A stretch of DNA of 64,000 nt, taken from IMG/VR virus record IMGVR_UViG_3300048090_000069, positions 25,652 through 89,651 of that record. One strand, given 5' to 3'. Of this stretch, positions 258 to 45,330 are shown piece by piece (within the stretch, counting starts at the first letter, position 1; each line of letters starts with the position of its first letter). The notes beneath the pieces are model-generated. The model was not told the origin of the DNA. It was given only the letters and a program-made list of their open reading frames with translations, and ran no database searches. This DNA comes from a virus. Its lineage: Duplodnaviria > Heunggongvirae > Uroviricota > Caudoviricetes. The position numbers and the translations under genes are program-made.

Positions 258-3200
258 ATGGATATTGCATCTCTTAACGTAAAAGTGAAGTCAGAAGGAA
301 TTCAACAGACAACAAATCAATTGAATTCTCTTGGCACTGCTGCTGCGAACACAGAAAAAAAAGTACAAAACCTTGTCGATGCTGTTGACAAGATGGTTAA
401 ACAATTCGCTGCGGGAGCATCTTCCACTAAAGCAATGACAGATGCCCTCTCCGTTGTGAATCGTTCTACACAAGCATCTGACGCAGCACTGAAATCCTTG
501 ACAACCTCTGTTACGAACCTTCAACGTGAAATCACTTCGCTGAATGGTAGATTACAACAAGGTTCGGGTGCTGTCAACCAGTCTACCGTAACTATTGTGC
601 ATAACACTGCTGCAATGAATGACGCACATGCTGCTGCCAGAGGCTTATCTGGCTCTCTAGGAGCTTTGTGGTTAACTTATGGTAATGTAATCCCCCTTGC
701 CGCTGGTGCGGCTATTGGCGCTTCTCTGAAGGCTATAGTGACGGTTGGTGTAGATGTACAAAGCACTTTGGAGAATATCCGTGTCCGTACTGAATCTACT
801 ATTGAAGAAGTAGCTCTGTTAGGAAAGACCATTTCTGATCTAGGTCAAGGTATTTATGGCCCTCAAGAAGTTGCTAAAGCACTAGAGACATTGACATTAG
901 CCGGTTTATCTGCTAAACAAGCTGTCACAGCTATTGGTGCAGCTTTGAATCTAGCAACATCTGGCGGTACTACTATTGAGAAATCTGCGGAAGCTCTCGT
1001 CACTATCGGGACTGCGGTAGGTGCTACATCAGCAGAATATGACTATCTTGCCGATGCTATTCAGAAGACAGCTAATATCTCTTTGGCATCTGTTGATAGT
1101 ATTGCGGAGACAGTTAAAAGAGCTTCCGTAGTTAATAAATTATATGGCGCTTCATTTGAAGACATCTTAACACAATCTGCTGCATTAGCACAGTTAGGTA
1201 TTAAAAACACGGCTGCTGGTACTGCTATTACTAACTTTTATGCTAATGCTCGTGCAGAAACAGAGAAAGCAAAGAAGGCAGTAGATGCTTTAGGTTTTTC
1301 CTTCCAAGATACAAACGGTAAAGTTAAGGAAATTGTTCCTGCGATTGAAGGTTATGCCAAGGCGTTGAATAAATTTGATTTAAACTCCCAGAAGGAGTTA
1401 ATCACGGCGCAGTTTGGTGAACGTTCTCTTAGAGATATCCAAGCATTAATCTCTTTGTACAATACGGCGGCAGAAAGCCAAGAACGTTTAGCTGATGGTA
1501 CATTGAAGTACAAGAATCGTCTTGAGGAAATTCAGGCACAAGTGCAAGATTCAGCCGGGGCTGCTGTTATTGCGGCATCTCAACAGGCACTATCCACAGA
1601 GAACTTATTCAAAGCAACTGCCAACTCTCTAAAAACTTCTTTAGGTGATGCTTTCAAAGTTATTGAGCCGGATGTACAACGTGTTTCTCGTATATTAAGG
1701 GATGGATTTGCATCTCAAGAATTTAAAACGGCTGTTGAAAATGTGGCACGAGGGTTTGTCTCTGTTGCAAAAGCGATTGCAGAAAACATTGGCCCGTTGA
1801 CAATGTTAGTTGAGTTGTTTTTAACTTACAAAGCCATTGTCGCTGGTGGTGCGTTATTCACAACCATGATTCCTGCAATTGAAGCGGTTGGTATGGCCGT
1901 ACTTACATTAGGTGGCGCTACTCAAACTGCTGCTGTTGGCATGAGTGCTATGGGGGTTGCAACAGCCACTACTACTACAAGTATGTTGGCTCTGACAAGA
2001 GTTATCCCCGGAATTGGGGCAGCATTAGCTGCTGCAACTGCTGTTTTCGCATTATACTCGTTGCACGCCAAAGACGCTACCGATAATACTACAAAATTAG
2101 CAGAATCGAAACGTCAAGCTGCTGTTGACTACAACACAGACTTTTTAAAATCTTTGTCTGAGGAAGCTACTCGTATTGAACTAGTGAATGAGCAAATCAG
2201 TAAAGGTATTACTTTAACAGATGCTCAAACTGAGGCTAACAAGAGACTTGCACTTGAAAAGCAAAAAGATATCAACAACTCTTCTGTTGATGCGGCCCAG
2301 AAAGCCTTAAATGATGCACAAAGAGATGTCTCAAGACTAAGCTCCAGTTCCGGTACAGGTAGGGAGGGAGAAGACCTGAAGAACGCGGTAGCACTTGAGA
2401 AAGCTCTTAAACAAGTCACAATAGCACAGAAGCTTTTAAACGCTGCTAAAACAGATGCGGCAGAAGCAGATAGAAAAGCTCTAGAAGACATGGAAAGAAT
2501 TCGGAAAGGTTCGGCCTTTCAGCAGTCCATGATTCGTGCTCAAACTCTTGGCGCGGAGTTGGAAGCAAGGGAGCGTGCTGGTAGTCAAACATTCAATCCT
2601 GAAGCTGATAAAGCAGCACAGAAGCAATTAACTTTCCTTGAAGAAGAACAACGACAGCTAAAACTGTTAGCCGCTGGTTATCAAGCTCGTGGGGATGCTT
2701 TAATTAAGTCTTATCTAGCTGGTGAGAAGATTGCTGCTGATACACAACAAGCTCGTATCAAAGTTAATCAGGAAGAAGGTAAGTATGCTTCTGATAAAAT
2801 TGCAGCACAAGAACTTATCCTTGCAAAGAATGCTGATGAGAAGAAGGATTATGAAGAACGTGCAAAAATCTTTACAGAGCTTGGTTTTAAAACACAAGGT
2901 ATCATTGCAGGAGAAAAAGCAGCACAAGAAGCTTTTGCAAAAGGTGATACAGACCGCAAGGGCAACTTAGAGCGTCAAGCAAACAAAGCTGCGGACTTTA
3001 TCAAGCTAACTGTAGAGCAACGTGATGCTTTCGTAGAACAAGCTGCGGCTGCTGAACTCATAAACAAAGCTATCGAATACAGAATTAAGCTTGAGTCTGA
3101 AACTAAGTCTGCGGGTGGCCGTGCTGATGCTCTGATGGCTCAAGCTGAAGCAATGTCTGAATATGGTAGTAAAGCAAAATTCACAGCACTTGATTTAGCC

Positions 3201-6200
3201 AAAGGAAAAGTTGCACAAGAAGAATTTACAGATGCAATTACTAAAGGTGCTCAAGCTGCATATATTGCTAGTGCTGCATACGAAACTGCTGCAAAGGCTT
3301 TGGTCAATATCACTAAGATTGGTCAACAGTCTGCGGAAGATGAAGAAAAAGCACAGGCAGATAGCTTGCTGATTTTCGCTGATACTGAGAAAAAGAAAGT
3401 AGAAATTAAAGCAAATTCTGCTAAGAGGATTATTGCCTCCAATTTAGCACAGGCTGAGTCTGCTGCTGGTACAGGGGACGAGAAGGCTATTGATGCTTAT
3501 GAGAAAGCAAAGATATCTTCTGTCAATGCTATTGCACAGATTGACAGGACAACCATTCTCAAAACTCACAACATCGAGTTAGAAGACTGGAAGAAAACAG
3601 CTAATCAAATTGTTGATGCAACTATCGAAGGTTTTGAACGTTCCCGCGATCAAGGATTAAGCATTTGGAAATCCTTAACTAACTCTATCAAAGACATGTT
3701 TAAAAAGACAATCTTTGATTATATTAAAAAAGAGTTTGCAAAACCTATCCTTCTTAATCTTGTTGCAAGTACAGCCGGTACGCTTGGTTTCTCAAGCTTG
3801 TCTGAAACGGCTGGTAAGATGGCTGGAAGTTCTTCTGGTTCAAGTGCAATTAGTTTGGCATCTGCTGCTAACAATATTTACAAAGCTATTAGCGGTGGTT
3901 TTGATGGGCTAGCCTCTTCAATTTCTAATGTAGCTCAGAGTGGACTAAACCTTCTTGGCCCTAACTCTGGCTTCTACACAGGAGAGGCAACTTCTGGTAT
4001 TGCAAATACTTCTCTTGCTAATGGTATTGGTACTGCTGGTAGTGCTGTAGCAGGGATTGCCGGTGGAATTTATGGTGGGCGTGCAATCTCTGGTGGTTAT
4101 TCTGCATTAGGTAGCTCTGGGAATAGTGCTGTAAACATTAGTACTATTGTTGGTGCTGTTGTTGGTGGGCCACTAGGGGCTTTAATTGGTGGATTGATTG
4201 GTGGTTCTGTTAATCGTTTGTTTGGACACAAAGCTAAAGAGATTCAGTCGCAAGGTATTCGCGGAACTTTAAGTGGTGATGCAGCAACTGGTGAAAACTA
4301 TGCTAATTGGATTCAAAAGGGTGGTTTGTTCAGGAGCGATAAAAAGGGAACAGAGACATCTGCTATTACTTCAGATATTCAAAATACATTAACCAGTAGC
4401 TTTAACCAACTGAAATCTACAGTAGGATATTTTGCTAAAGATGTTGGTGTTGGTACTTCTGCATTAGATGGCTTCACAAAACAATTTGATATTGCATTTG
4501 GAACTGATGCACAAAAGAATCAAGAAGCTGTAACAAAATTCTTCACAGATTTAGGTGATGAGTTTGTTACAAAGCTGATTCCTAACATATCTGACTTTGC
4601 AAGACAGGGTGAAACTGCTTCTCAAACTTTGGAAAGATTGTCCGCAACTTTCAAAATCACAAATCAAATTGTTGAGATTCTGGGTAAAACTGGAGAGCAA
4701 GCATTTGGTAGTGTAGGGCTGGCATCGGATAAAGCTCGTGAACGTCTGATTGATTTAGCTGGTGGTATTGATAAACTTGGCTCTAAAGTTACAGCTTATG
4801 CTTCTGATTTCTTAACGGATGCTGAGAAAATAGCTCCTGTGAAGAAAGCAGTTAATGAAGCATTGACATCTCTCGGATTAGCTGGTGTAACAACTAAAGA
4901 GCAATTCAAAAATATTGTCAACGGACTTGACCTTACTTCTGAAGCTGGTGCAAAACTGTTCAATGATTTACTAGACTTAGCTCCTGCATTTGCACAAGTG
5001 GCTGATGCTGCTGATTCTGCTGCACAGGCTGCTAAAGACGCTGCTGAAGCTGCTGAAGAGGCACAAAAAGCTGCTTTTGAAGCTGCCATGAAAGCTGTAG
5101 ATGCCTCTTTCAATAGACTGAAAAAATCTGTCGATGCACAGAAGTCTGTGGAGAATGACAGATACAATCAAGAAGTGGCATTTATTAAGGCGGTAGGAGA
5201 GGCACGTAAAAATGCTGCTCAAACTGAATTAGATACTGCTAAACAAACTGTCAGTACGTTGTCAGGTATTTTAAGTAGCTTGCAGAATGCTTTGGTTAGC
5301 ACAAAAGTTGAATCTGTGGCGCTAGATAAAGCTCGCCGTGTTTCTGCTCAAACTTATTTAGCATCTATTCGTGGAACAGACTTATCTAAAGCCTCTGGAT
5401 TAAATGATGCCCTTGGAAATGTTTCTGGGGACTCTAAACAGTTCTTCGCAACATTTGAAGAGTATGCTTTGGATCAAGCTAAGACAGCCAATTTAATTTC
5501 TGGCTTAGTTAATGAAACCACTATTAGCAAGAGTTTTGCAGAATTGACAGTTGAACGTTTGAATGATACAATTACAGCAATTCAAAATTCTACAGATGCT
5601 CAATTATCTGCTGCTGAAAGTCATCACAATGACGAAATAGCCAAGTTGGATAAGGTTATTGATGCGGCTCAATTACAAATTGATGCATTAAATGGAATTC
5701 AAACTGCTGTTCTTTCTGTTACATCTGCTATTGCTAATTTCAATGCTGCTGTTAATGCTGCGGTAGGTGCGGGAGGTAGTGTAGGTGGTAATCCTAGCCC
5801 TACTTATAGTGGAACAGGTAGTAGTGGTAGTATTCCTAGCAATGGCGGTGGTGGTCTTGGTAGTATGTACGTCAACCCTATTGGCTCTGGTACAGGTGGT
5901 TCTGAGTCTAATCCGTTCTTCTGGGAAAACACTGTCTGGGACTTCATGCGCAATGGAGCATACGTAGATGGTAGCCATGCATCCGGTTTAGGTTATGTTC
6001 CGTTCGACGGTTATATTGCAGAGCTTCACAAAGGCGAGCGAGTTATGACCGCTGCCGACAATGCAAACCTCTCTCGCCAAGCAGATAGTGCAAGTAGTGG
6101 TTCTTCTCAAGATATTAACTCTCTGAAAGCTTCCATTGAAGACTTGAAGCAAGCAATTGTTTCTGGAGATATTGCAGTAGTTGGATATCTGAGAGAGATG

Positions 6201-6257
6201 TTACAGATTGATCGTCGTTGGGATCAAGACGGATTACCTGCCACACGAGAAGTGTAA
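258..6257 (+). CDS. tail tape measure protein (1999 aa)
   Basis: Very long Ala/Gln/Lys-rich coiled-coil protein with central hydrophobic TM-like segments and a Gly-rich C-terminal region. These are typical TMP features. It is followed by a terminator hairpin. Confidence 0.8.
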   Translation: MDIASLNVKVKSEGIQQTTNQLNSLGTAAANTEKKVQNLVDAVDKMVKQFAAGASSTKAMTDALSVVNRSTQASDAALKSLTTSVTNLQREITSLNGRLQQGSGAVNQSTVTIVHNTAAMNDAHAAARGLSGSLGALWLTYGNVIPLAAGAAIGASLKAIVTVGVDVQSTLENIRVRTESTIEEVALLGKTISDLGQGIYGPQEVAKALETLTLAGLSAKQAVTAIGAALNLATSGGTTIEKSAEALVTIGTAVGATSAEYDYLADAIQKTANISLASVDSIAETVKRASVVNKLYGASFEDILTQSAALAQLGIKNTAAGTAITNFYANARAETEKAKKAVDALGFSFQDTNGKVKEIVPAIEGYAKALNKFDLNSQKELITAQFGERSLRDIQALISLYNTAAESQERLADGTLKYKNRLEEIQAQVQDSAGAAVIAASQQALSTENLFKATANSLKTSLGDAFKVIEPDVQRVSRILRDGFASQEFKTAVENVARGFVSVAKAIAENIGPLTMLVELFLTYKAIVAGGALFTTMIPAIEAVGMAVLTLGGATQTAAVGMSAMGVATATTTTSMLALTRVIPGIGAALAAATAVFALYSLHAKDATDNTTKLAESKRQAAVDYNTDFLKSLSEEATRIELVNEQISKGITLTDAQTEANKRLALEKQKDINNSSVDAAQKALNDAQRDVSRLSSSSGTGREGEDLKNAVALEKALKQVTIAQKLLNAAKTDAAEADRKALEDMERIRKGSAFQQSMIRAQTLGAELEARERAGSQTFNPEADKAAQKQLTFLEEEQRQLKLLAAGYQARGDALIKSYLAGEKIAADTQQARIKVNQEEGKYASDKIAAQELILAKNADEKKDYEERAKIFTELGFKTQGIIAGEKAAQEAFAKGDTDRKGNLERQANKAADFIKLTVEQRDAFVEQAAAAELINKAIEYRIKLESETKSAGGRADALMAQAEAMSEYGSKAKFTALDLAKGKVAQEEFTDAITKGAQAAYIASAAYETAAKALVNITKIGQQSAEDEEKAQADSLLIFADTEKKKVEIKANSAKRIIASNLAQAESAAGTGDEKAIDAYEKAKISSVNAIAQIDRTTILKTHNIELEDWKKTANQIVDATIEGFERSRDQGLSIWKSLTNSIKDMFKKTIFDYIKKEFAKPILLNLVASTAGTLGFSSLSETAGKMAGSSSGSSAISLASAANNIYKAISGGFDGLASSISNVAQSGLNLLGPNSGFYTGEATSGIANTSLANGIGTAGSAVAGIAGGIYGGRAISGGYSALGSSGNSAVNISTIVGAVVGGPLGALIGGLIGGSVNRLFGHKAKEIQSQGIRGTLSGDAATGENYANWIQKGGLFRSDKKGTETSAITSDIQNTLTSSFNQLKSTVGYFAKDVGVGTSALDGFTKQFDIAFGTDAQKNQEAVTKFFTDLGDEFVTKLIPNISDFARQGETASQTLERLSATFKITNQIVEILGKTGEQAFGSVGLASDKARERLIDLAGGIDKLGSKVTAYASDFLTDAEKIAPVKKAVNEALTSLGLAGVTTKEQFKNIVNGLDLTSEAGAKLFNDLLDLAPAFAQVADAADSAAQAAKDAAEAAEEAQKAAFEAAMKAVDASFNRLKKSVDAQKSVENDRYNQEVAFIKAVGEARKNAAQTELDTAKQTVSTLSGILSSLQNALVSTKVESVALDKARRVSAQTYLASIRGTDLSKASGLNDALGNVSGDSKQFFATFEEYALDQAKTANLISGLVNETTISKSFAELTVERLNDTITAIQNSTDAQLSAAESHHNDEIAKLDKVIDAAQLQIDALNGIQTAVLSVTSAIANFNAAVNAAVGAGGSVGGNPSPTYSGTGSSGSIPSNGGGGLGSMYVNPIGSGTGGSESNPFFWENTVWDFMRNGAYVDGSHASGLGYVPFDGYIAELHKGERVMTAADNANLSRQADSASSGSSQDINSLKASIEDLKQAIVSGDIAVVGYLREMLQIDRRWDQDGLPATREV

Positions 6258-6264
6258 TGGAATG

Positions 6265-6287
6265 GGGGCTTTTGCCCCCTTCTTTCA
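6265..6287 (+). terminator. intrinsic terminator/attenuator after tape measure gene
   Basis: GGGGGC-TTTT-GCCCCC hairpin followed by a TTCTTTC tract. Confidence 0.6.
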
Positions 6288-6326
6288 AGGAGATATAAAA
6301 TTAAAATAGTAAGTCCTCAAACTGTT

Positions 6327-7460
6327 GTGGACAGTGCATTAGTCTCAAGTAACGTGAGTGCTACCAGTGCAACAGCGTGGAGTGCTAGCACAGTATATGT
6401 TCTTGGGGATATTGTACAGTATGACGCAACAAATAGCCATCGTACATTCCAATCTAAACTTGGAGTGACAAGTACAGTAACCATAACTATTGCCTCCCCG
6501 GCTGTTGTAACAATGACAGGACATGGACAAGTGGCAAACACACCTTGGCAAGCATCCACTACGGGTGCTCTGCCTACAGGTATTGTAGCAGGAACAGTAT
6601 ACTACATTCTTGCTCCTACAGCAAATACTTTCAACCTTTCTGCAACTCCTGGTGGTGCAGCGATCAATACAACTGGCACTCAATCTGGCACGCATACAGC
6701 TAAAGCTTCTTTGAATTATAACAAAAATCCTTCTACAGATGACGGGACAAATTGGATTAATACAGGAAGTACAAATCGTTGGAAGATGTTCGATCAAAGC
6801 GTTCAAAGTCAGACAACAAACTCTAATACAATTGATGCTGTAGTTACTTTTTCGTCTATTGTAGATACTGTTGCATTTCTTAATTTAAGTGCTCAATCGG
6901 TTAGAGTAAAGGTAACACATCCTGTAGATGGGATATTGTATGACCAAACACAAACACTAACATCCAGTTCTGGTATTACTGATTGGTACACTTATTTCTT
7001 TACCCCAATCAGACGGAAGACAGATATTGTATTTTATGATTTACCTAAATATTCCAATGTCCAAATTGAAGTGATTGTAAGTAATACAGGAGGTACAGCA
7101 GGTTGCGGCGGTTGTATATTTGGGCAAACTACCGACATTTCTAGTGAAGGGTTGGGCGTAGAGCATGGCGCTAAACTAGGTATTCAAGATTATTCGATTA
7201 AGAGCACTGATGACTTTGGTAATTTTAACATTGTCCAGAGAGCTTTTAACAGAAGAACAGATTTTAATATTTTCATCAATAACACAGATTTAGACTATGT
7301 TTACAATTTGTTGTCTGAAAGAAGGGCTATACCAACATTATATATTGGAAGTTCTAGATTCGGTTCAACACTTGTTTACGGATTCTATAAAGATTTTAGT
7401 ATTGATATTTCTTATTACGATTGTTCTGTAGTTTCAATTACATTAGAAGGACTCACATAA
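6327..7460 (+). CDS. tail/baseplate structural protein (Thr/Ser-rich), GTG start
   Basis: 377-aa ORF immediately downstream of the TMP. It is T/S/N-rich like distal tail proteins. No specific motif was recognised. Confidence 0.4.
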   Translation: MDSALVSSNVSATSATAWSASTVYVLGDIVQYDATNSHRTFQSKLGVTSTVTITIASPAVVTMTGHGQVANTPWQASTTGALPTGIVAGTVYYILAPTANTFNLSATPGGAAINTTGTQSGTHTAKASLNYNKNPSTDDGTNWINTGSTNRWKMFDQSVQSQTTNSNTIDAVVTFSSIVDTVAFLNLSAQSVRVKVTHPVDGILYDQTQTLTSSSGITDWYTYFFTPIRRKTDIVFYDLPKYSNVQIEVIVSNTGGTAGCGGCIFGQTTDISSEGLGVEHGAKLGIQDYSIKSTDDFGNFNIVQRAFNRRTDFNIFINNTDLDYVYNLLSERRAIPTLYIGSSRFGSTLVYGFYKDFSIDISYYDCSVVSITLEGLT

Positions 7461-7461
7461 T

Positions 7462-7896
7462 ATGGTTGCACAAGTAACTCCGCTACCAACTCCTCCAAAT
7501 AGGAGTATGGATAGCTCAACATTCACTTCTACAGCGGACAGTTTTCTAGGCGCGCTTCCTACATTTGGTACAGAAATTAACACAGTAGCATCTGAAGTGA
7601 GTGCTAATGCCGTGTCTGCTGATGTAGATGCGAACACAGCTACGGCACAGGCATTAATCGCGGCCAATGCTGCTGAAGCTGCTTTGTCCAGTGCAGGAGT
7701 GACCCTTTGGGTAAGCGGGAACACCTACGCGCAGGGTGTGACAGTGATTAGTCCTGCCAACTCTCTTGCATTTAGAAAGAAAACACCATCAAGCAGTTCT
7801 ACTACAGACCCATCCAATGATCCTGTGAATTGGCTCCCCATCGGGGGATCACCAGTTGGCACTCTTTACGCAAATAATAATTTCGGAGGTTTTTAA
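7462..7896 (+). CDS. tail fiber-like protein (N-terminal fiber-type domain)
   Basis: The N-terminus (PLPTPPNRSMDSSTF...FLGALPTFGTEINTVA...) resembles conserved tail-fiber N-termini, and the protein is Ala-rich. It is translationally coupled to the upstream gene. Confidence 0.45.
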   Translation: MVAQVTPLPTPPNRSMDSSTFTSTADSFLGALPTFGTEINTVASEVSANAVSADVDANTATAQALIAANAAEAALSSAGVTLWVSGNTYAQGVTVISPANSLAFRKKTPSSSSTTDPSNDPVNWLPIGGSPVGTLYANNNFGGF

Positions 7897-7899
7897 ACT

Positions 7900-8301
7900 A
7901 TGGCAGCAAATATTCAACCAATCTTTCCCGCATCCCCTGTGATCGGTATTGCTACCCTTACTTCGGCTACAGCAATTACTTCTCGTGCCAATATTACAGG
8001 TACAACAGGTTTGGTGCAGCTTACTCCTACATCAACAAACGGTAAACGAGTAGACAGCATTACAGTTAAATCTAAAGCCACATCTGTAGCCAGTATTACC
8101 AGTATTTGGATTTATAACGGCACTACTTCTTTCCTCTATGACGAGATTGACGTAACAGCAGTGACAGCAAGCACCACAGTAGATTCATTCTCTGTGAGAA
8201 AAACTTACAGTGATTTAATACTCCCCCCTACTTATCAACTTTACATCTCTCAGACAGTTCAAACAGATGTAAATGTGTATGCTAATGGTGGAGATTACTA
8301 A
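7900..8301 (+). CDS. tail protein
   Basis: 133-aa Thr/Ser-rich ORF packed within the tail gene block. Confidence 0.35.
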   Translation: MAANIQPIFPASPVIGIATLTSATAITSRANITGTTGLVQLTPTSTNGKRVDSITVKSKATSVASITSIWIYNGTTSFLYDEIDVTAVTASTTVDSFSVRKTYSDLILPPTYQLYISQTVQTDVNVYANGGDY

Positions 8302-8303
8302 TC

Positions 8304-9158
8304 ATGACTTTTCCAAACAGTTTTGCACTTCCCCCTCAAGCTAAGTCTCAAATTTTTACAACATCTGGTAAATTTTATCCTAAGCCAGATGCAAGTTTCT
8401 ACGTCATTGATTTGGTTGGGGGTGGTGGTAGTGGGGGTAGTAGTGGAACGTCAAATGGAGGGGGAGGTGGTGCTAGAAATATTAGGATAATTCCAGCAAA
8501 CTTTGTGACTGGAGTTGTTAGTGTGACTGTCGCTGCGGGTGGTGCAGCAGTGACGGCGGGGGCCAATGGCAACGTTGGTGGAACAACGTCATTCGGGTCT
8601 TTGATGTCTGCTTATGGTGGTGGTGGGGGTGTTAACTCAGGAACTCCCGGTGGTGGTGGCGGGACGTTAGGGCCGGGAAGTAATTCTAGTGTTGGTGGTG
8701 CTCCTTCTAACACCAGTAGTTCCTCAACAAATGGTGGTGCGGCTGCGTCGTCTGCGTCGGGCGCAAGTGGCGGAACGGCGGAATACGGTGGTGGTGCTGG
8801 TGGGCAAGCCGGTTCCGGTGGTGCCGGTGGTGCTGGTGGTGGTTCTTTCTACGGGGCAGGGGGTGGAGGCGGCATGGGTTCCAGCAATGTTGGTGGTGCT
8901 GGTGGTGCTCACGGACTTTGGGGTACTGGCGGGGGTGGTACTGGAGGCCCGAATAGTGGTACTGGTAATGGCTCTCCGGGACAGTCAGTACCCGCTAATT
9001 CTAACCTCTGTGGCAGTGGTGGTGGTGGTGGTTCTAGTAGCGGTTCTATAGGTAATGGTGGTGATGGAGGATTTCCCGGTGGCGGTGGTGGTGCTGGTCT
9101 TACTGGTGCTCTCTCTGGTGCCGGTGGTAATGGCGTTGCCCGTATTTATTGGTGGTAA
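8304..9158 (+). CDS. glycine-rich tail fiber/collagen-like structural protein
   Basis: 284 aa dominated by GGxGG repeats. The ATGA overlap with the upstream gene indicates coupling. Confidence 0.5.
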   Translation: MTFPNSFALPPQAKSQIFTTSGKFYPKPDASFYVIDLVGGGGSGGSSGTSNGGGGGARNIRIIPANFVTGVVSVTVAAGGAAVTAGANGNVGGTTSFGSLMSAYGGGGGVNSGTPGGGGGTLGPGSNSSVGGAPSNTSSSSTNGGAAASSASGASGGTAEYGGGAGGQAGSGGAGGAGGGSFYGAGGGGGMGSSNVGGAGGAHGLWGTGGGGTGGPNSGTGNGSPGQSVPANSNLCGSGGGGGSSSGSIGNGGDGGFPGGGGGAGLTGALSGAGGNGVARIYWW

Positions 9159-9192
9159 ATATTCACTAAAATTTGGATAAAAGGAAAACAAT

Positions 9193-9585
9193 ATGCGTGC
9201 AGCACAACTAGAAAATAACGTAGTAATTAACTATGCACTTGTAGGAGGTTTTGACGGAGTTGAATTCGTAGACCCTCTAGATTCCGTTCTCGGATCAACG
9301 TGGGACGGAACAAGCTTCACACCTCCTGCCCCTGTTCCTCCTGTCGTTCCAGCCTTAGTGACAATGAGACAGGCACGTCTAGCACTATTTGCAAATGGGA
9401 AACTGGATGCTGTAGGGCCAGCAATTAACTCACTACCTAGTCCTACGAAAGAACAAGCACAAATAGAGTGGGATTATTCCTCCTCTGTAGAGCGTAATCG
9501 CCCTCTTGTGCAAGCCCTAGGGCCATTGTTAGGATTGACAGAGGAAGACCTTGACAACCTATTTATACAGGCTGCTACATTATGA
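9193..9585 (+). CDS. tail fiber assembly/chaperone-like protein
   Basis: Small protein after the fiber genes with a Pro-rich linker and a conserved-looking C-terminal segment. Resemblance to Tfa-type proteins is weak. Confidence 0.3.
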   Translation: MRAAQLENNVVINYALVGGFDGVEFVDPLDSVLGSTWDGTSFTPPAPVPPVVPALVTMRQARLALFANGKLDAVGPAINSLPSPTKEQAQIEWDYSSSVERNRPLVQALGPLLGLTEEDLDNLFIQAATL

Positions 9586-10085
9586 AATACGCAGAATACA
9601 GAAAGAATGTTAAAAGTGGTGACATAATTGCGCTCTCTCATTATGAATGGGCTTCTTGGAGAGACTTACAGATTCAAGCCGTAAGGCTTTTCACCGAGAG
9701 TGAGTACAGCCACGTTGGACTTATTTGGAAAGTTAGTGGTAGATTATTTGTAATAGAGGCTGTCACACCTTTCATTCGCATTGTACCTCTGTCTCAATAT
9801 GCTAAAGATGGGTTCTATCACGTCCCGATGAAGAAACCAATGTCTTCTCAGGAATTAGAATATGCATTGTCAGAAGTAGGTGTAGGAGGATATTCTAAAC
9901 TAGAAGCAATCAAAGGCTTTCTCAAAACACTAAGGATTGGTGCTAACCACGAATGGCAATGTAGTGAATTCGTCATAGCCTGTAGAAACATCTCTGGAGT
10001 ATTTTTAGGAGATACAGCTACACCTAGCGCTGTGATACAAGCTGCACTCTCTCAAGGAAACACTTTGAATTACGTGAAGGATTAA
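9582..10085 (+). CDS. NlpC/P60-superfamily (LRAT-like permuted) cysteine peptidase
   Basis: An SHVGLIW (His) motif upstream of QCSEFV (Cys) matches the LRAT/NlpC-P60 permuted His...Cys arrangement. Likely a virion- or lysis-associated peptidoglycan peptidase. Confidence 0.4.
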   Translation: MKYAEYRKNVKSGDIIALSHYEWASWRDLQIQAVRLFTESEYSHVGLIWKVSGRLFVIEAVTPFIRIVPLSQYAKDGFYHVPMKKPMSSQELEYALSEVGVGGYSKLEAIKGFLKTLRIGANHEWQCSEFVIACRNISGVFLGDTATPSAVIQAALSQGNTLNYVKD

Positions 10086-10086
10086 T

Positions 10087-10365
10087 ATGGAAGCTAGTGT
10101 TTTATTGTGGATTGCACAAGCTGTTTTAGGCGCGTTTGCAGCAGTGTTGTGGTTCCTCTTTCAAGATGTAAAATCAAAAGCAGAGAAGGCAACTAATGAC
10201 CTCGCAGAATTCAAAACAATAGTAGCTCAAGTGTACGTTAGCCACACAGCTTTAAAAGACACACTTGGGGATATTAAAGAAATGTTCCGAGATTACGAAA
10301 CAAAGATGGATCAACGTCTTAATCGTATTGAGGATAAGCTAGATGAAGTTAGAAGTAAACAGTAA
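10087..10365 (+). CDS. spanin-like (Rz-type) membrane protein
   Basis: N-terminal TM helix followed by a charged coiled coil. It sits directly upstream of the endolysin. Confidence 0.4.
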   Translation: MEASVLLWIAQAVLGAFAAVLWFLFQDVKSKAEKATNDLAEFKTIVAQVYVSHTALKDTLGDIKEMFRDYETKMDQRLNRIEDKLDEVRSKQ

Positions 10366-10376
10366 AGGAACAAATA

Positions 10377-10790
10377 ATGATTAACAGTAGAAACGTCAAC
10401 GACCTAACAGGTGACATGCAACATCGCTGCCAGAAGTTTATTGCCATGTGCAAGGATGCTGGAATTGATGTTATTGTGACATCCACATATCGTGACCTTG
10501 AATCACAAAATGCCTTGTACGCACAAGGTAGAACAACTCCGGGCAGGATTGTCACCAATGCAAAAGCTGGATATTCTGCGCACAACTTCCGTAGAGCGTT
10601 TGACATCTGCATCGTGGTAAATGGCAAGGCTGTGTGGGATGACCTTGACCTTTATAAGCAATGTGGAGAAATTGGAGAGAAGTGTGGATTAGATTGGGCC
10701 GGTTCTTGGAAATCCTTTAAAGAGTATGTACATTTCCAAGAAAAAGACCTTGACATGGGTGCTTTGCGGAAAGAATACGGAGTGAAATAA
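10377..10790 (+). CDS. endolysin, peptidase M15 (VanY/L-alanyl-D-glutamate peptidase type)
   Basis: Motifs STYRDLESQNALYAQGRT and DLDWAGSW...H are characteristic of M15 zinc peptidases used as phage endolysins. Confidence 0.8.
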   Translation: MINSRNVNDLTGDMQHRCQKFIAMCKDAGIDVIVTSTYRDLESQNALYAQGRTTPGRIVTNAKAGYSAHNFRRAFDICIVVNGKAVWDDLDLYKQCGEIGEKCGLDWAGSWKSFKEYVHFQEKDLDMGALRKEYGVK

Positions 10791-11278
10791 TGTTCGCCAA
10801 ACTTAAGTTGTTCTTTCAACTCTTTCAATTCGGGAAAGAAGTTGGAAACAAACTATTCTGGAAGCAAGCACAATCAACAGTCTTACCTGCTGTTGTGGGT
10901 GGTATTGTGGTTGTACTTAATCTTCTCAAATCCTTCGGTATCGAGGTTGGGCTTGATGAAACTACTATTTATTATATTGCTGGTAGCCTTTACATGCTCA
11001 TCAACTCTTGCCTCACCTTCATTACGTCGAAACATGCCGGTATTGGAGGAATGCAACCGGGAGCCGTGGGAGAAGCCCAACAGGCTATGCCAAGCAATCC
11101 TACGCCAGCAGGAGGCGTTGAAGCAAGTACGACAGTGCAATCTGAGCATCAAGCCACAAGTACCAGTCGATTTGACGACGAGACTGTTAGGCGAGCTAGA
11201 GAATGGGCTGAACGACAAGGGATCGATGGGAAACCTGTTCCAGAGGGGCAGAATAATCCTTTCAACACAATGGGCTGA
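10790..11278 (+). CDS. holin-like membrane protein
   Basis: Two predicted TM helices with a hydrophilic C-terminus. ATGA overlap with the endolysin. Last gene of the plus-strand module. Confidence 0.45.
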   Translation: MFAKLKLFFQLFQFGKEVGNKLFWKQAQSTVLPAVVGGIVVVLNLLKSFGIEVGLDETTIYYIAGSLYMLINSCLTFITSKHAGIGGMQPGAVGEAQQAMPSNPTPAGGVEASTTVQSEHQATSTSRFDDETVRRAREWAERQGIDGKPVPEGQNNPFNTMG

Positions 11279-11735: not shown

Positions 11736-12119
11736 TTACGCATTTTGATCAATTAGTTTTTCAAACGCTTGGAAGCGTTCAGCCTTCTTGACAGTCTTCT
11801 CTACAGCTTCTTGCTTTGCACGAGCGAAGAAGTATTCTTTTAACTCTTGGGCTTTGAATCCAGAGGCTCTTGAAGCTGATTTGATAGCCTGCTTCAGTTC
11901 CACACTGACTTCTTTCATCTCACTTACAAGTTGGTTGTAATCATCGTTGTCAGCAAGAATTTCGTCAAGTTTTTTCTGCAAGCATTTGACGTTTTCCTGC
12001 AACGTTGTCACATTTTCATCGGAGTCTTTACAATCTTTGATAAGTTCTTTCTTCTTTTGCAGCGCACGCACCAGCGGCATCACTTCACGGCTATATTCAA
12101 TCAGATTAGTTTCGTTCAT
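11736..12119 (-). CDS. hypothetical coiled-coil protein
   Basis: 127-aa charged, coiled-coil-like ORF. Confidence 0.45.
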   Translation of the reverse strand: MNETNLIEYSREVMPLVRALQKKKELIKDCKDSDENVTTLQENVKCLQKKLDEILADNDDYNQLVSEMKEVSVELKQAIKSASRASGFKAQELKEYFFARAKQEAVEKTVKKAERFQAFEKLIDQNA

Positions 12120-38508: not shown

Positions 38509-38924
38509 GTTTCCTCCATGTAAAATTTATGTAAACCAATTGTGCGACGATGTTTAAACTTCTTATTCCACTCAGGATGTTTGTCCAACCTATGAAAATG
38601 AGAACATCCTCTACAGACAGGAGACATTCTAAACAACTCTTCCCATCCTGTCAAGCTCTTTGTTTCAATAATCTTCTGCCATGTGAAGCCAGAGAATTGC
38701 TTAGGCTGTAGAGCCACAACAGGGCAACTCTTGTTTGTACGTTTCATCCTCTCTAGAACTACGTCCATCACTGCACGCTTCCCTGCTAAGGACTCCCCTG
38801 AAGCCTCATGCTCTACGACAGCTTTCAAACAAACAGTGTCAGAGACAGCGAAGCTCCTAGAGGGATTGTCTACGTTGATACAAACAAAGAGTAGAAGAAG
38901 GCTCCAGAGCCATTTCAAGGCCAC
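38505..38924 (-). CDS. secreted SleB-like cell-wall hydrolase (Hydrolase_2 family)
   Basis: N-terminal signal peptide. The body carries EASGESLAGKRAVMDVVLERM...PKQFSGF, matching the SleB/CwlJ-type hydrolase motif. Confidence 0.5.
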   Translation of the reverse strand: MALKWLWSLLLLFVCINVDNPSRSFAVSDTVCLKAVVEHEASGESLAGKRAVMDVVLERMKRTNKSCPVVALQPKQFSGFTWQKIIETKSLTGWEELFRMSPVCRGCSHFHRLDKHPEWNKKFKHRRTIGLHKFYMEET

Positions 38925-40540
38925 AGGCGCTTACGAATCTTTTCTAGAGAGTCTTCTACAACCAGCTTACCATCTTCAAACACTGTTCGCAGTAATCCTT
39001 GTTTCTCTTCTTCAGGAGTTTGCTCATCGTACAGGACAAACCTCCCATCTTCATATTCTACACGGAGCAAACCTTTAGCAGATTTCTTCATGCCATCACC
39101 CGTTTTAGGGTCTTTGAAAATGTTACGTGGCTCTCCATTGACAATGCCGTAAGTGGCTTTCATAGCAAAGCCGTAGCTGTCACGAGTGACATGCTGATAG
39201 GTGTAGGAGCCAATGCCAAATACAATGTTAGAAGAGGCAAAGCCTTTAGCTTCCAGACGCTTCAGAATTTGCTGAGCACGTTCCAGAGTGATGCTGTCTC
39301 CGTAAATCAGACCAACACGAGGATTCAACATTTTGTGTCCTGTCTCGGACAGAGTACCACCAAAGATGTCCCAAAGGCATTCTACAGAGCCTTTTACTTC
39401 GTGCTCTGACACTTCCCGGCCTAGTTCAATGTCCATCAGACAATTACAAGAATCCCCACAGAAACTGTAATCAAATTCGTAATACTTGCCGTCTTTGACC
39501 GCTACATCAGTGGAATAGATATTGTCCTCGCAAACATCGTCAATATCTGTCACACGAAGTCCAGCAACAATTTTTACAGGATCACCACTATCAGGACGGA
39601 ACACCACCTTAGCATTACCCAGAGCATCAGGCTTACGTGCAAGGATGATGTCTTTCAGTTGTGCAGCAGTGTTTGTAATGACATTCCAGTAGTCCCAAGT
39701 GTCCGAAACAATACTAACAATACCGGACGGATATAGGTCAGTGATGAGACGCTTAATTGTAGCGTATTCACCTTCATCTGCCCCGCCCATGCACATTACA
39801 GAATGCTCCGTAGCTGGAACAGACCCACCAACAAACGTTTCACTGCCCTTGTAGTACTTTTCCAGATATTCAATGGCAGAAATAGTGTCAGTGCCAAGGA
39901 AAGACAGTAAGTGACCCGGAGCACTTTGAGCACCATCGAAGCTCCCAGACAAACCACGAAGCGAGAAATCATGACCTTGCCACAGAATAAACTCCTTAGG
40001 CGCACCTGTCTTTTCTGCATAATCCGTCAGCAGCTTACGATATTGGTAAGCAGTGGTTGCAGTGGTCGTAGGCTTCCACAGGTTGTTGCTGTACGCATCT
40101 TCCAGATAACCAACCAGCCAGCCAAAGCCGATCACCGTATTAGTGACAGTGAGTACAGGTACTTTAATATCTACCAAACTACCTTCAGGCAAAGCTTTGA
40201 TGCGCAGCGGCAGATAGCCCAAATCATGCAGGGCCGCAATGTGCGAGACATCAACAGCATCAGGGCCAAGGCACTTATCCATCATGGCTTTGTATTCACC
40301 TACAGCTTGTTCCTTTGGAACATTGAAGAATTGTTCATTGAACAAATCAATCAGGAAGTATTTGATAAAGCCTTGCAGGCCAAAGAATACAATCTTCTCG
40401 TCAAACGTATCTTTCAGCTTTGGTGCAAGCCGAGAGGAACGGGCAGTGAAATTAGAATAGACGTATTCCGTACCTTCTGGATACATCTTAACGTGTCCCG
40501 TCTTGTACATATCAGCAGCAAACAGCGGATTCAGTTTCAT
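38915..40540 (-). CDS. nadV: nicotinamide phosphoribosyltransferase family protein (Nampt/NadV homolog; could be the Namat-type nicotinamide ADP-ribose transferase)
   Basis: 541 aa with clear Nampt-family similarity along its length (MKLNPLFAADMYKTGH..., GTDT, C-terminal region). It is adjacent to a Prs-like gene. Confidence 0.85.
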   Translation of the reverse strand: MKLNPLFAADMYKTGHVKMYPEGTEYVYSNFTARSSRLAPKLKDTFDEKIVFFGLQGFIKYFLIDLFNEQFFNVPKEQAVGEYKAMMDKCLGPDAVDVSHIAALHDLGYLPLRIKALPEGSLVDIKVPVLTVTNTVIGFGWLVGYLEDAYSNNLWKPTTTATTAYQYRKLLTDYAEKTGAPKEFILWQGHDFSLRGLSGSFDGAQSAPGHLLSFLGTDTISAIEYLEKYYKGSETFVGGSVPATEHSVMCMGGADEGEYATIKRLITDLYPSGIVSIVSDTWDYWNVITNTAAQLKDIILARKPDALGNAKVVFRPDSGDPVKIVAGLRVTDIDDVCEDNIYSTDVAVKDGKYYEFDYSFCGDSCNCLMDIELGREVSEHEVKGSVECLWDIFGGTLSETGHKMLNPRVGLIYGDSITLERAQQILKRLEAKGFASSNIVFGIGSYTYQHVTRDSYGFAMKATYGIVNGEPRNIFKDPKTGDGMKKSAKGLLRVEYEDGRFVLYDEQTPEEEKQGLLRTVFEDGKLVVEDSLEKIRKRLWP

Positions 40541-40543
40541 TGT

Positions 40544-41368
40544 TTAAATTTCCTTAATTTTATTGTGAGAGCCAAACATATTGTTTACAACATAGATATT
40601 GTCATACACATCAGCAACAATGTCAACACCTTTAGTAAAAATACCATGTGTCACCATGATGTTGATAGTGCCGTGATAGTGCATCTGAAGCTCGTCAGCC
40701 AGCGGAATGAACGTGCCGCCACCATCTAGAATATCATCTACGACAAGAACATTTTTGTCTTCAAATTGCCCAATATCATTGTACACAACAGTGCCAGTGA
40801 TTTTCCCCGTCTTGACATCTCGTGTCTTGTCAGCCCTCATCACTTCCACTTCGGGAATATACGTAGAGACAAACTGAGCATACTTCTGAATCTTCTTCAA
40901 TGCCCCAGCATCAGGACTTACAATCACAGTGGCCTTGCAATCTTGCATAGCTTTCAACACTTTTTGTTCCACAGAGCAAATATGAATGTTGTACAACAGA
41001 GCACCTAAAACATCACTGTGAGGGTCTGTGACAAACACCCTATCAAAATTCATGCTGTTAATGAAATTACAAATAACTTTCAAACTATGACTCTCTCCAG
41101 CATTACAAACCCTATCTTGGCGAGCATATGGGAAATAATCAATCGTCAGATTTACAGGAATCTTCGGATAGTTTCTCCGCACAGCATCATTCAGCAGAGC
41201 AAGTTCAATCAAATCCTCATTACCTTGCCACTTCAATGTAATATGTGCTTGAGGGTGTTGTGAATTATATCCCAAAGCCATATCAGTTAGCTTAATACCG
41301 GTTTCTCCTGCTGGAAAATTCCATCTATTAATTGTTACAGGATGGCGGTCTACATATAAACTAAGCAT
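40544..41368 (-). CDS. prs: ribose-phosphate pyrophosphokinase family protein (Prs homolog; could be Adps-type ADPR pyrophosphokinase)
   Basis: YARQDR motif and PRPP-binding loop VVDDILDGGGT are present. At 274 aa it is shorter than canonical Prs. Confidence 0.85.
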   Translation of the reverse strand: MLSLYVDRHPVTINRWNFPAGETGIKLTDMALGYNSQHPQAHITLKWQGNEDLIELALLNDAVRRNYPKIPVNLTIDYFPYARQDRVCNAGESHSLKVICNFINSMNFDRVFVTDPHSDVLGALLYNIHICSVEQKVLKAMQDCKATVIVSPDAGALKKIQKYAQFVSTYIPEVEVMRADKTRDVKTGKITGTVVYNDIGQFEDKNVLVVDDILDGGGTFIPLADELQMHYHGTINIMVTHGIFTKGVDIVADVYDNIYVVNNMFGSHNKIKEI

Positions 41369-42291: not shown

Positions 42292-42397
42292 CTTCCCTCC
42301 TCTTTAGACTTCATACAAAGAACATTGTACAACACATTTCTACAAAGCACAAGCACAAAAAGAAAAAGGCTCCCGAAGGAGCCTAAAAGCATGCTTT

Positions 42398-43930
42398 TTA
42401 TGTTATTTGTAGAAGTGTTGTTGGCAAACCTACAATCAAACTGACAAGTTCTGCGTCTAACCCTGAGAGGGCAGCGCTCTTGTATACAGCATCATGCACT
42501 GTAGAAGTGTATTGCTTACTCCTAGAACCTAGTGTATGATTTTGGCTGTTCAGAGACAAGCCAGAGTAAACGTTAAACTGCTCCTTAGTCCATGCTACAG
42601 GGCCAGTGGTTGCATTTTTGACTTTGTACCCTGTACCAGAGAACATATTGTTCATACAGATAACGTTGTTCAAAAGTGCTGCTGTAGAGGTAGTTTGGAT
42701 AGCTGCATCTGTTATACCGATGAATACATTGTTGAAAACCTTGTTGTCACAAGCGCCTGCTGTATCTCCTAAGAAGAATCCTGTTTTCATTGTGACAAAC
42801 TGATTGCCGTATATGTAATTGTTTGTGCATTTGCCAAGAATCATGACACCACAACCACTATTGAATACACCAGCCTTACCTACAATATTGCTAATTTTGT
42901 TTCTACGTACAATTGTGTTCTTTGTTCCAATATCTAATAGAATTCCGTTAGCATCAATTGTACTTGTGTAAAATGTATCTCCTACATTGTCTTGAATGAT
43001 ATACCTACCGTAGAAGCTATCCACGAAACCTGTCGGCCCTTGTATATTGGAAGCATAATTATCGGAAATGATGTTGTCACCGAATGTTGTATAGCTGTAT
43101 GACAGAGCAAAACCCCAAACACCGATACAACCGCCAAAGATGTCTGTTGGTGATTCAAGTCCATTAAGGAACTTATTCCCTTTGATTTGGCACCCTTGCG
43201 CTTGGTAGGCTTGACCTGTTGTACCGGGGCAGGTAAGTTCGATAGCACATCCCCTATAGTTATTGAAGGTATTATAATTAATCTTAATATCTGCCATATA
43301 CGCGGCAGAATTACTATCAGTTTGTGTGCGGAACTCAATAACAGAACGATTAGCAGCATTCGTGAATGTATTCCCCTCAATGGTACACCGAAGCATGCTA
43401 GAGTTAGCAGCACTTTGAACCCACCATCTCAAAGCTGCATGATTTGTAGAGCCTCCTGCTGTCGTGTTGAAAGTGTTTCCACGAATCTCAATGTCAGAAT
43501 GTGTATCACCAGAAGCAGAGAAGCGGATAGCAGATGTACCACCGGGAGTATCAAAGATGTTGCCAATGTAACGAGAACCCCAAGCAGCACCGTTGTGTGT
43601 AACAGCGGCAAGGGATTGGAAAAACATAATATTTGTACCAGTTCTTCCATTTGTTAGAGTGTTAGTAAGTGTAGGTGAAAATACGATACTACCAACAGAC
43701 GGGGCGTAGTCACCACGAATTGTGCAAGGTGTTGTTACACTTCCTCCGTGTGCTCCTACAGAGATACCTGCTGCATAGGTGTGTACTCCGCAAACATAGA
43801 GGTCATCCCCACCTTTAACGCCAGAGGCTCCCCATACAATCTCACTCCATCCACCCCATGCATTAGCGTAAGAAGTTCCGTTCCTTGTGCCTGAATGACT
43901 TGTATCAGGTCTTACATACCACGTAGCCAT
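42398..43930 (-). CDS. right-handed beta-helix (pectate-lyase fold) protein, tailspike/depolymerase-like
   Basis: About 510 aa. The N-terminus (MATWYVRPDTSHSGTRNGTSYANAWGGW) is typical of pectate-lyase-fold enzymes. Many N-x-F/I-x-G-N repeat rungs follow. A GAGGA RBS lies 8 nt before the second ATG. Confidence 0.6.
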   Translation of the reverse strand: MATWYVRPDTSHSGTRNGTSYANAWGGWSEIVWGASGVKGGDDLYVCGVHTYAAGISVGAHGGSVTTPCTIRGDYAPSVGSIVFSPTLTNTLTNGRTGTNIMFFQSLAAVTHNGAAWGSRYIGNIFDTPGGTSAIRFSASGDTHSDIEIRGNTFNTTAGGSTNHAALRWWVQSAANSSMLRCTIEGNTFTNAANRSVIEFRTQTDSNSAAYMADIKINYNTFNNYRGCAIELTCPGTTGQAYQAQGCQIKGNKFLNGLESPTDIFGGCIGVWGFALSYSYTTFGDNIISDNYASNIQGPTGFVDSFYGRYIIQDNVGDTFYTSTIDANGILLDIGTKNTIVRRNKISNIVGKAGVFNSGCGVMILGKCTNNYIYGNQFVTMKTGFFLGDTAGACDNKVFNNVFIGITDAAIQTTSTAALLNNVICMNNMFSGTGYKVKNATTGPVAWTKEQFNVYSGLSLNSQNHTLGSRSKQYTSTVHDAVYKSAALSGLDAELVSLIVGLPTTLLQIT

Positions 43931-43974
43931 TGTAAAAATCCTCATAAACGTTTATAGAAAGTGCTTGACAAGTG

Positions 43975-44003
43975 ATCAGCTTATCTGTAGAATCATAGCA
44001 TTC
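43975..44003 (+). promoter_or_regulatory. sigma70-type early promoter (TTGACA-17-TAGAAT) in divergent region
   Basis: GTGCTTGACAAGTGATC...TAGAAT with a 17-nt spacer, 40 nt upstream of the first plus-strand early gene. Confidence 0.6.
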
Positions 44004-44042
44004 GCAATACAATCAGTCAAAATTTACAAACAGGAGGATATT

Positions 44043-45291: not shown

Positions 45292-45304
45292 CGCTCTATA
45301 TAGA

Positions 45305-45330
45305 GGCTCCTTCGGGAGCCTTTTTCTTTT
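45305..45330 (+). terminator. intrinsic terminator
   Basis: GGCTCC-TTCG-GGAGCC hairpin followed by a T-tract. Confidence 0.7.

Follow-up and report, generated by a model that had tools for sequence, protein, structure and literature searches.

Tailed phages can carry polysaccharide depolymerases of the beta-helix type as part of their particles, and the genes for such tailspikes are then expected among the tail genes. In the DNA analyzed here, a stretch of 64,000 nucleotides (64 kb, referred to in its full length as the window) from an uncultured tailed phage, a gene for a beta-helix protein is found instead at the point where two arms of opposite transcription diverge. This locus raises the question of whether the protein is a tailspike which happens to be encoded apart from the tail genes, or an enzyme which acts apart from the particle. 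The first-pass annotation, made from the sequence alone, had considered both a soluble depolymerase made early and a separately encoded tailspike. We address the question by considering the gene and its start, the predicted fold, the termini of the protein, the transcription signals, and the position of the gene in related genomes.

The phage and its genome layout

The source phage has a genome of about 88–90 kb, and related siphophages were found. Public contigs which carry the identical beta-helix gene have differently permuted ends. A megablast search against 50,697 GenBank phages revealed no relatives at the DNA level among cultured phages. A scan of genome contigs for hosts returned nothing for the query clade and, for distant members of the family, Nitrosospira-type prophages only.

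The coordinates of the features discussed here are compiled in Table 1. The left part of the window is a plus-strand arm which carries the gene for the tape-measure protein (TMP), tail-tip and fibre genes, a fibre chaperone gene, and lysis genes. The fibre set which, together with the chaperone, follows TMP comprises w_144, w_133, the Gly-rich w_284, and w_130. The minus-strand arm, between about 43.9 kb and 11.7 kb, is devoted to nucleotide metabolism and replication (RNR, DNA polymerase, primase-helicase, a Prs-like/NAMPT-like pair and, according to gene calls, ThyX). From position 43965 on, many small genes fill the plus strand. The sign of the GC skew flips near 12 kb and again near 44 kb, which fits the expectation for two arms with their divergence point at 44 kb and their convergence point at 11.5 kb. 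With RNR, polymerase, and primase-helicase present and no integrase noticed, the phage looks virulent.

Table 1. Positions of genes, transcription signals, and other features in the window
Feature	Position	Strand	Remarks
Tail module, TMP through lysis genes	258–11278	+	31 kb from the beta-helix gene
TMP gene, 1999 aa	258–6257	+	
w_284 gene, 284 aa	8304–9158	+	fibre position after TMP
Examples of sigma70 matches	12531, 16212, 21831, 24382, 25573, 33600, 38654	-	near-perfect
tRNA-Met (CAT)	21620–21696	-	downstream of a 12/12 sigma70 match (21831–21803)
PRPP-synthetase-like (274 aa) and NAMPT-like (541 aa) genes	38915–41368	-	adjoining pair
Intrinsic terminator	42356–42384 (hairpin 42367–42384)	-	AGGCUCC stem, UUCG loop, GGAGCCU stem, then UUUUCUUUUU
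Beta-helix protein gene, 510 aa	42398–43930	-	stop codon TAA at 42398–42400
Clade-specific helical C-terminal tail, about 35 aa	42401–42505	-	residues ~475–510; ...SGLDxxxxxxxxxLPxxLLQIT
Ribosome-binding site GAGGA	43939–43943	-	8 nt upstream of ATG 43930
Rightward sigma70-like promoter	43965–43993	+	TTGACA-17-TAGAAT, 11/12
Leftward sigma70-like promoter	43992–44020	-	TTGACT (44020–44015)-17 nt-TGn-TATGAT (43997–43992), 10/12 plus extended -10
Examples of sigma70 matches	43965, 45407, 46112, 55800, 56224	+	near-perfect
Twin terminator	45302–45323	+	same 27-nt core AGGCTCCTTCGGGAGCCTTTTTCTTT, after the third or fourth small gene
Lipoprotein-like ORF, 143 aa	46276–46707	+	small-gene arm
DUF8224 protein gene, 667 aa	47412–49415	+	PF26675, phrog_1735

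Several other genes of the window deserve mention in their own right. The fibre-position protein w_284 is extremely glycine-rich. Its gene has a GC content of 0.55 (0.41 for the window), and its first 84 residues alone are conserved (65%) with the related siphophage contig L046. This pattern of divergence fits the expectation for a fast-evolving receptor-binding tip. The adjoining PRPP-synthetase-like and NAMPT-like genes are missing at the same spot in the otherwise near-identical contigs L001–L004, where genes for proteins of 61 aa and 84 aa are found. The pair is thus an accessory cassette with presence/absence polymorphism, and we assume that it could be the NARP1 (Adps + Namat) pathway, by which phages reconstitute NAD+ as an anti-defence measure. 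The replication arm also contains the single tRNA gene listed in Table 1. The DUF8224 protein, to which no function is assigned, occurs at 45–52% identity in 560 diverse cultured phages (phages of Salmonella, Klebsiella, Pseudomonas, and Bacillus, and roseophages). Finally, the N-terminus of the 143-aa ORF in the small-gene arm resembles, by eye, a lipoprotein signal (MKSMKAIIAIAAVTSLSAC...). In gene calls of related contigs this ORF has 123–143 aa, and it possibly encodes a receptor-masking or superinfection-exclusion lipoprotein.

The beta-helix gene and its start codon

The ORF of about 510 codons which had been proposed for this locus proved to be real and its coordinates to be exact. The open frame extends from 42398 to 43945 on the minus strand (515 aa), and thus includes a further in-frame ATG (43943–43945) upstream. 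This ATG overlaps with the GAGGA motif and is unlikely to be the real start. We assigned the start to the second ATG (43930) based on its spacing from GAGGA, on the N-termini of homologues (MATWYVRP), and on public gene calls of 510 aa, the identical protein (P0001) being called on six public contigs. Full-length sequence identity is 57–71% in the five nearest homologues, and the protein is found with 100% identity across several metagenomes. No paralogues of the gene exist within the 64-kb window. A recent foreign origin was ruled out as far as composition is concerned, given that the GC content of the gene (0.426) is within the range of the window (0.414 ± 0.022).

The gene lies well away from the structural block, with the tail module being encoded on the opposite strand, and it is promoter-proximal on the minus arm, being the first gene left of the divergence point. 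Both statements had already been made in the first-pass annotation.

Fold, family, and active site

An AlphaFold2 model of the monomer, computed from a 46-sequence alignment, has a pLDDT of 88.3 and a pTM of 0.89. In this model, the protein forms one domain in which short strands are arranged in rungs from residue 3 to about residue 470. The predicted architecture is a right-handed parallel beta-helix with three-stranded rungs, as in the pectate-lyase-like superfamily. The initial proposal of a pectate-lyase-type beta-helix with a canonical N-terminal cap is thus borne out by the model and by the homologues.

Searches with the query against the Pfam, PHROGs, and NCBIfam models gave zero matches, and the query itself does not match any of the PbH1-type models (PF13229, PF05048, TIGR03804); of the 46 aligned homologues, 12–13 match PF13229 or PF05048. 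A tblastn search found no homologue in the 50,697 cultured phages from GenBank (INPHARED). The family is nevertheless sizeable when compared against 1.84 billion representatives, with 168 clusters (counted at 50% identity) at E ≤ 1e-30 and 1050 at E ≤ 1e-10. Its members are from uncultured phages and Nitrosospira prophages, and include secreted bacterial proteins.

Among PDB sequences, the best match of the family profile is RbmB (PDB 9ozd, E 8.5e-7). RbmB is a secreted polysaccharide lyase from Vibrio cholerae which acts on VPS and for which K227, activated by E253, has been proposed as the base (PMC12993940). In the HMM alignment, K199 of the RbmB chain (corresponding to K227) is located in an insertion relative to the family profile and E225 (corresponding to E253) on a non-conserved column, with the offset in residue numbering being inferred. 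Membership in the RbmB-type lyases was ruled out on this basis. The likeness between RbmB and the phage family is in the fold and the repeat, not in the active site, so that no reaction mechanism can be transferred to the phage protein. Outside the Asn ladder, the polar residues R7, H12, Y21, D42, D326, D333, and E450 are near-invariant.

The fold and the secreted bacterial members of the family point to a polysaccharide-active enzyme. One might instead consider a non-catalytic beta-helix (an adhesin, a binding module, or a decayed enzyme), encoded by a passenger gene. This would agree with the finding that catalytic residues could not be assigned, the Lys and Glu of RbmB having no conserved equivalents, and with the presence of the beta-helix adhesins PfbA and Vag8 among the fold matches. 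However, most structural neighbours are enzymes, three of the near-invariant positions are acidic (D326, D333, E450), and the conservation among the five nearest homologues and across metagenomes extends over the full length of the protein. We therefore consider a non-catalytic role improbable.

The N-terminus is a helix cap

In the model, the helix cap begins with WYVRP at residue 4, and the first strand covers residues 3–7. The sequence of the cap, WYVRP...NGTSY..AWGGW...GD.LYVCG, is of the DUF1565-like type which is canonical for such helices. From 236 family proteins that were collected, 144 carry the motif, and in 124 of these it starts within the first 10 residues. At least 10 bacterial homologues have WYVRP directly behind a signal peptide (e.g., ...SPAWAA/DWYVRP), and some of the homologues with a signal peptide also have C-terminal PG_binding_1, dockerin, or fn3 domains. 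Both features indicate that the bacterial homologues are secreted soluble enzymes. The phage protein, which is devoid of a signal peptide, would thus correspond to the mature form of a secreted bacterial enzyme.

An N-terminal particle-binding domain, which the first-pass annotation had named as a point to be checked, is absent. Neither such a domain nor a docking peptide precedes the cap, which starts at residue 3–4 according to both the model and the homologues. This favours the reading as a soluble enzyme.

The principal alternative is that the protein is a virion-associated tailspike, or a second receptor-binding protein, which is encoded apart from the tail genes and docks to the particle via its C-terminal helical tail or via a partner protein. 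Some features of the N-terminus could be taken to argue for this. Mean pairwise identity is 0.72 over the first 30 residues and 0.25–0.42 elsewhere, with a variable centre, and some relatives have only their first 85 residues in common (56–76% identity). A conserved N-terminus combined with a variable centre is a pattern also known from receptor-binding proteins. However, the cap is equally conserved in phages of differing tail types and in secreted bacterial proteins, and its conservation is thus considered an intrinsic property of the cap rather than that of a docking element. The conserved N-terminus as a virion docking module can be largely ruled out, because it is the helix cap and also occurs in bacterial proteins with a signal peptide. 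N-terminal extensions of 80–380 aa which resemble fibres or anchors are present in a minority of the family (P0144, and P0111 with its fibre-like repeats). Such fused forms, which are in line with a tailspike, indicate that the beta-helix module can also be built into true fibres, but the protein encoded in the window has no anchor domain of this kind.

The C-terminal tail

At the C-terminus, the model has three short helices of low confidence (residues 478–509, pLDDT below 50–70). The corresponding sequence, ...SGLDxxxxxxxxxLPxxLLQ(L/I)x, is common to the five closest homologues (the target protein and P0002–P0005) and is restricted to the siphophage clade. It stands in place of the C-terminus found in the rest of the family (DPxL..YRP...G..D..G....IGA). 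The tail could be a docking or oligomerisation element, and its retention in the siphophage clade alone is among the points which speak for a tailspike.

Transcription signals around the gene

The start codon of the beta-helix gene and that of the first gene of the plus arm (ATG 44043, 130 aa, phrog_2452) are separated by a 112-bp intergenic region. Two sigma70-like promoters are predicted there on opposite strands, with -10 hexamers which overlap by 2 bp, and the region thus has the layout of a compact bidirectional promoter. For the leftward promoter, the predicted 5'UTR has a length of about 55 nt. On the other side of the gene, an intrinsic terminator sets in 13 nt past the stop codon. It has a 7-bp GC-rich stem and a minimum free energy (MFE) of -13.8 kcal/mol (z -2.3 compared to shuffled sequences).

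The gene had been described as the head of the replication operon. It is indeed the first gene left of the divergence, but the terminator straight after its stop codon indicates that it forms its own monocistronic transcription unit and does not head that operon. Judged from these signals, the locus is a candidate promoter-gene-terminator cassette.

The window contains one further copy of the 27-nt terminator core, that of the twin terminator on the plus strand (2 exact 16-mers, compared to 0.16 expected). The twin terminators bound a unit of about 3 kb (42.36–45.32 kb), which extends for about 1.3–1.6 kb to each side of the bidirectional promoter (43965–44020). This layout resembles an immediate-early region, and the right-hand terminator is followed by a strong promoter (45407).

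Promoters of the host type are also predicted elsewhere in the window. There are 15 sigma70 matches of at least 11/12 with an exact TTGACA, compared to 1.6 ± 1.2 in first-order Markov simulations. Thirteen of them are co-oriented with the genes (8 on the minus arm, 5 on the small-gene plus arm); a 12/12 match at 19579 on the plus strand is antisense to the minus arm. In the intergenic spaces of the tail module, no sigma70 match of at least 11/12 was detected. The promoter of the beta-helix gene itself (10/12 with TG) is weaker than this 11–12/12 class and is putative, being a match to the consensus only. Its type is, as far as can be judged from the sequence, that of the replication and small-gene arms and not that of the tail block. 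The shared promoter type supports early or middle expression by the host RNA polymerase.

These signals bear on two further readings. The protein might be an early intracellular effector which acts on lipid-linked or nucleotide-linked polysaccharide precursors, or on another cytoplasmic polymer, and which would shut down capsule/EPS synthesis, free undecaprenyl phosphate, or block superinfection. The promoter-proximal position in a twin-terminator unit with an immediate-early-like layout is compatible with such a role, as are the missing signal peptide and the lipoprotein-like ORF on the adjoining early arm, which maybe has a surface-modifying or exclusion role. Against this stand the occurrence of the same gene in late operons of relatives (see below) and the secretion of the bacterial homologues; also, no case is known to us in which the beta-helix fold acts in the cytoplasm during phage infection. 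We assign a low probability to this reading. Equally doubtful is that the protein, whose gene alone separates the leftward early promoter from the first terminator, is an immediate-early product which works before lysis, either intracellularly against capsule/EPS intermediates or stockpiled for superinfection control. If this were true, the "WYVRP-cap" family would be a new functional class, and the hyper-conserved, Trp-rich first 50 residues would be a functional site and not a mere cap.

Gene position in related genomes

In three related siphophages, the gene is found at three positions: that of the window, that of L046 (71% protein sequence identity), and that of L005 (64%), while the tail genes stay syntenic. 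In L046 and L047, the tail proteins are 40–88% identical to those of the window and syntenic, and the NAMPT-like protein shows 57% identity. The late arm of these contigs ends with the beta-helix gene, which is placed 9 nt past a gene for a 184-aa protein which follows the GH108 lysin. The beta-helix gene is located at the convergence point, beside a homologue of the window gene at 11736–12119. In L005 and L011, where the tail proteins are 29–47% identical, the gene is positioned between a tail-associated phrog_1128 gene (the counterpart of window positions 9582–10085) and the holin gene, with terminator-like hairpins on both sides. The window does not have an insertion at the junctions which are equivalent to the gene sites of L046 and L005. 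When the neighbouring genes were compared to the window by BLAST, only tail genes were matched, and no homology exists between the 112-aa gene downstream in the window and the holin gene which takes this place in L005.

In both L046 and L005, late tail and lysis genes have the same orientation as the gene or are transcribed together with it. In an SU10-like podovirus and in prophages of Nitrosospira, more distant members are encoded between portal and scaffold/capsid genes. The structural block also contains the gene in most other phages and prophages, with translational coupling to the gene upstream. In the temperate phage L008, it follows the lysis cassette and is adjacent to a homing endonuclease and an integrase, and elsewhere beta-helix genes form tandem arrays with paralogues. 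The remoteness from the tail module noted in the first-pass annotation is thus a peculiarity of the window phage, with tail or lysis genes being adjacent in L046 and L005 and most other copies being located in the structural block. Judged from these arrangements, the gene therefore appears to be a mobile, moron-like accessory gene.

The comparison also provides points for a virion-associated tailspike. The family resides in structural modules, including the portal–scaffold/capsid site of the Nitrosospira-type and SU10-like prophages and, in L005, a site which follows the fibre chaperone gene. A co-oriented upstream gene directly adjoins the start of the gene in all cases but the window phage and L005. 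In 21 loci, this upstream gene codes for a protein of the 191-aa family p191, and the two remain tightly coupled even where conservation of the beta-helix protein is limited to its first 85 aa. Location in the tail/late module and predicted co-expression with it are found for L005, L046, and the prophages, but not for the window. There, an HMM search did not reveal a p191 relative which could serve as partner (best E 0.5), and the sigma70-type promoter and the terminator which belong to this gene are outside the late block. In addition, the position of the gene across relatives is not linked to the tail genes. Considering these points, and those raised by the termini, we regard a tailspike as rather unlikely, but as an alternative to be taken seriously.

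Prophages of the Nitrosospira type show a further peculiarity. In L006 (9425–13695), L009, L018, and about 20 other loci, paired cassettes are located between portal and scaffold/capsid genes. They consist of the 191-aa protein and the beta-helix enzyme, followed by one or two copies of a 290-aa protein and a PF14099 polysaccharide lyase. Over their first ~45 residues, the 191-aa and the 290-aa protein are alike, which suggests that a common adaptor or anchor system may serve several glycan-degrading enzymes in these prophages.

The preferred reading

The reading which we favour, with a confidence that stays somewhat below an even balance, is that of an anchor-less polysaccharide depolymerase which is released at lysis as a free enzyme. 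We infer its enzymatic activity, substrate, timing, and non-virion status. This reading is preferred because an anchor is lacking, the cassette is autonomous, the promoter is of the host type, the position is unlinked to the tail genes, and a complete fibre set is encoded elsewhere. The protein would be a single-domain right-handed beta-helix enzyme, a hydrolase or lyase, acting on a surface polysaccharide of the host (capsule, EPS, or O-antigen). A host-type sigma70 promoter, one half of the bidirectional promoter at the divergence of the arms, would drive a monocistronic mRNA which ends at the intrinsic terminator. Lacking a signal peptide, the protein would build up in the cytoplasm from the early or middle stage of infection on, and lysis would set free a diffusible enzyme. 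This could then strip polysaccharide off neighbouring cells and debris, so that the progeny may spread and adsorb better.

Some observations argue against a free enzyme, namely the leftward promoter being weaker than the 11–12/12 class, the late co-orientation in L046 and L005, the location in the structural block in most other phages, the N-terminal extensions of some members, the receptor-binding-like pattern of conservation, and the clade-specific C-terminal tail.

Comparison with known systems

Solubility has been hypothesised for anchor-less "additional" depolymerases of KP36-like Klebsiella siphophages (Latka et al. 2019, PMC6872550). As in the window, these are depolymerase-type beta-helix proteins of siphophages which lack a docking peptide or anchor and are encoded in addition to the ordinary set of tail fibres, and a release at lysis with stripping of neighbouring cells has been proposed. 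However, they show no detectable sequence similarity to the window protein, and their genes are beside the tail genes, whereas the gene in the window is found at the divergence of the arms, between a sigma70-type promoter and a terminator of its own. A precedent for a separately encoded tailspike is gp57 of KP34, a second receptor-binding protein (RBP) encoded after the endolysin and separate from the first one. A conserved N-terminal heptapeptide of gp57 serves for docking on a T4gp10-like anchor, and the protein has been described as a trimer in the virion (PMC6872550, PMC10653864); a second spike with a docking peptide, encoded after the endolysin, is a property of KP34-type phages (PMC6872550). 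For the window protein, in contrast, neither a docking peptide nor an anchor partner was found.

The window gene shares with the morons a sigma70-type promoter upstream, a factor-independent terminator downstream, and the location at a boundary of transcription units. Phage morons are known from lambdoid phages as promoter-gene-terminator units at operon boundaries; the definition of the classic moron refers to temperate phages, with expression from the prophage. The gene family resembles morons in that its position varies among related genomes and that it adjoins the integrase in the temperate L008. The window phage differs in that it looks virulent and in that the promoter region of the gene is shared with the main early promoter. 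By sequence, own promoter, own terminator, boundary site, and variable position, as expected for a moron-type cassette, are all found here. Both anchor-less beta-helix depolymerase candidates and moron-like cassettes are already known; it is the transcriptional setting which is unusual.

Significance

The gene, itself an unannotated member, anchors a sizeable and uncharacterised family. Free phage depolymerases have so far been mostly hypothesised. Should an early host-type promoter indeed drive the synthesis of a free depolymerase here, this would be a clean natural case in which polysaccharide degradation is separated from the virion. A compact, anchor-less enzyme of 510 aa, if active, may also be suited for anti-biofilm applications.
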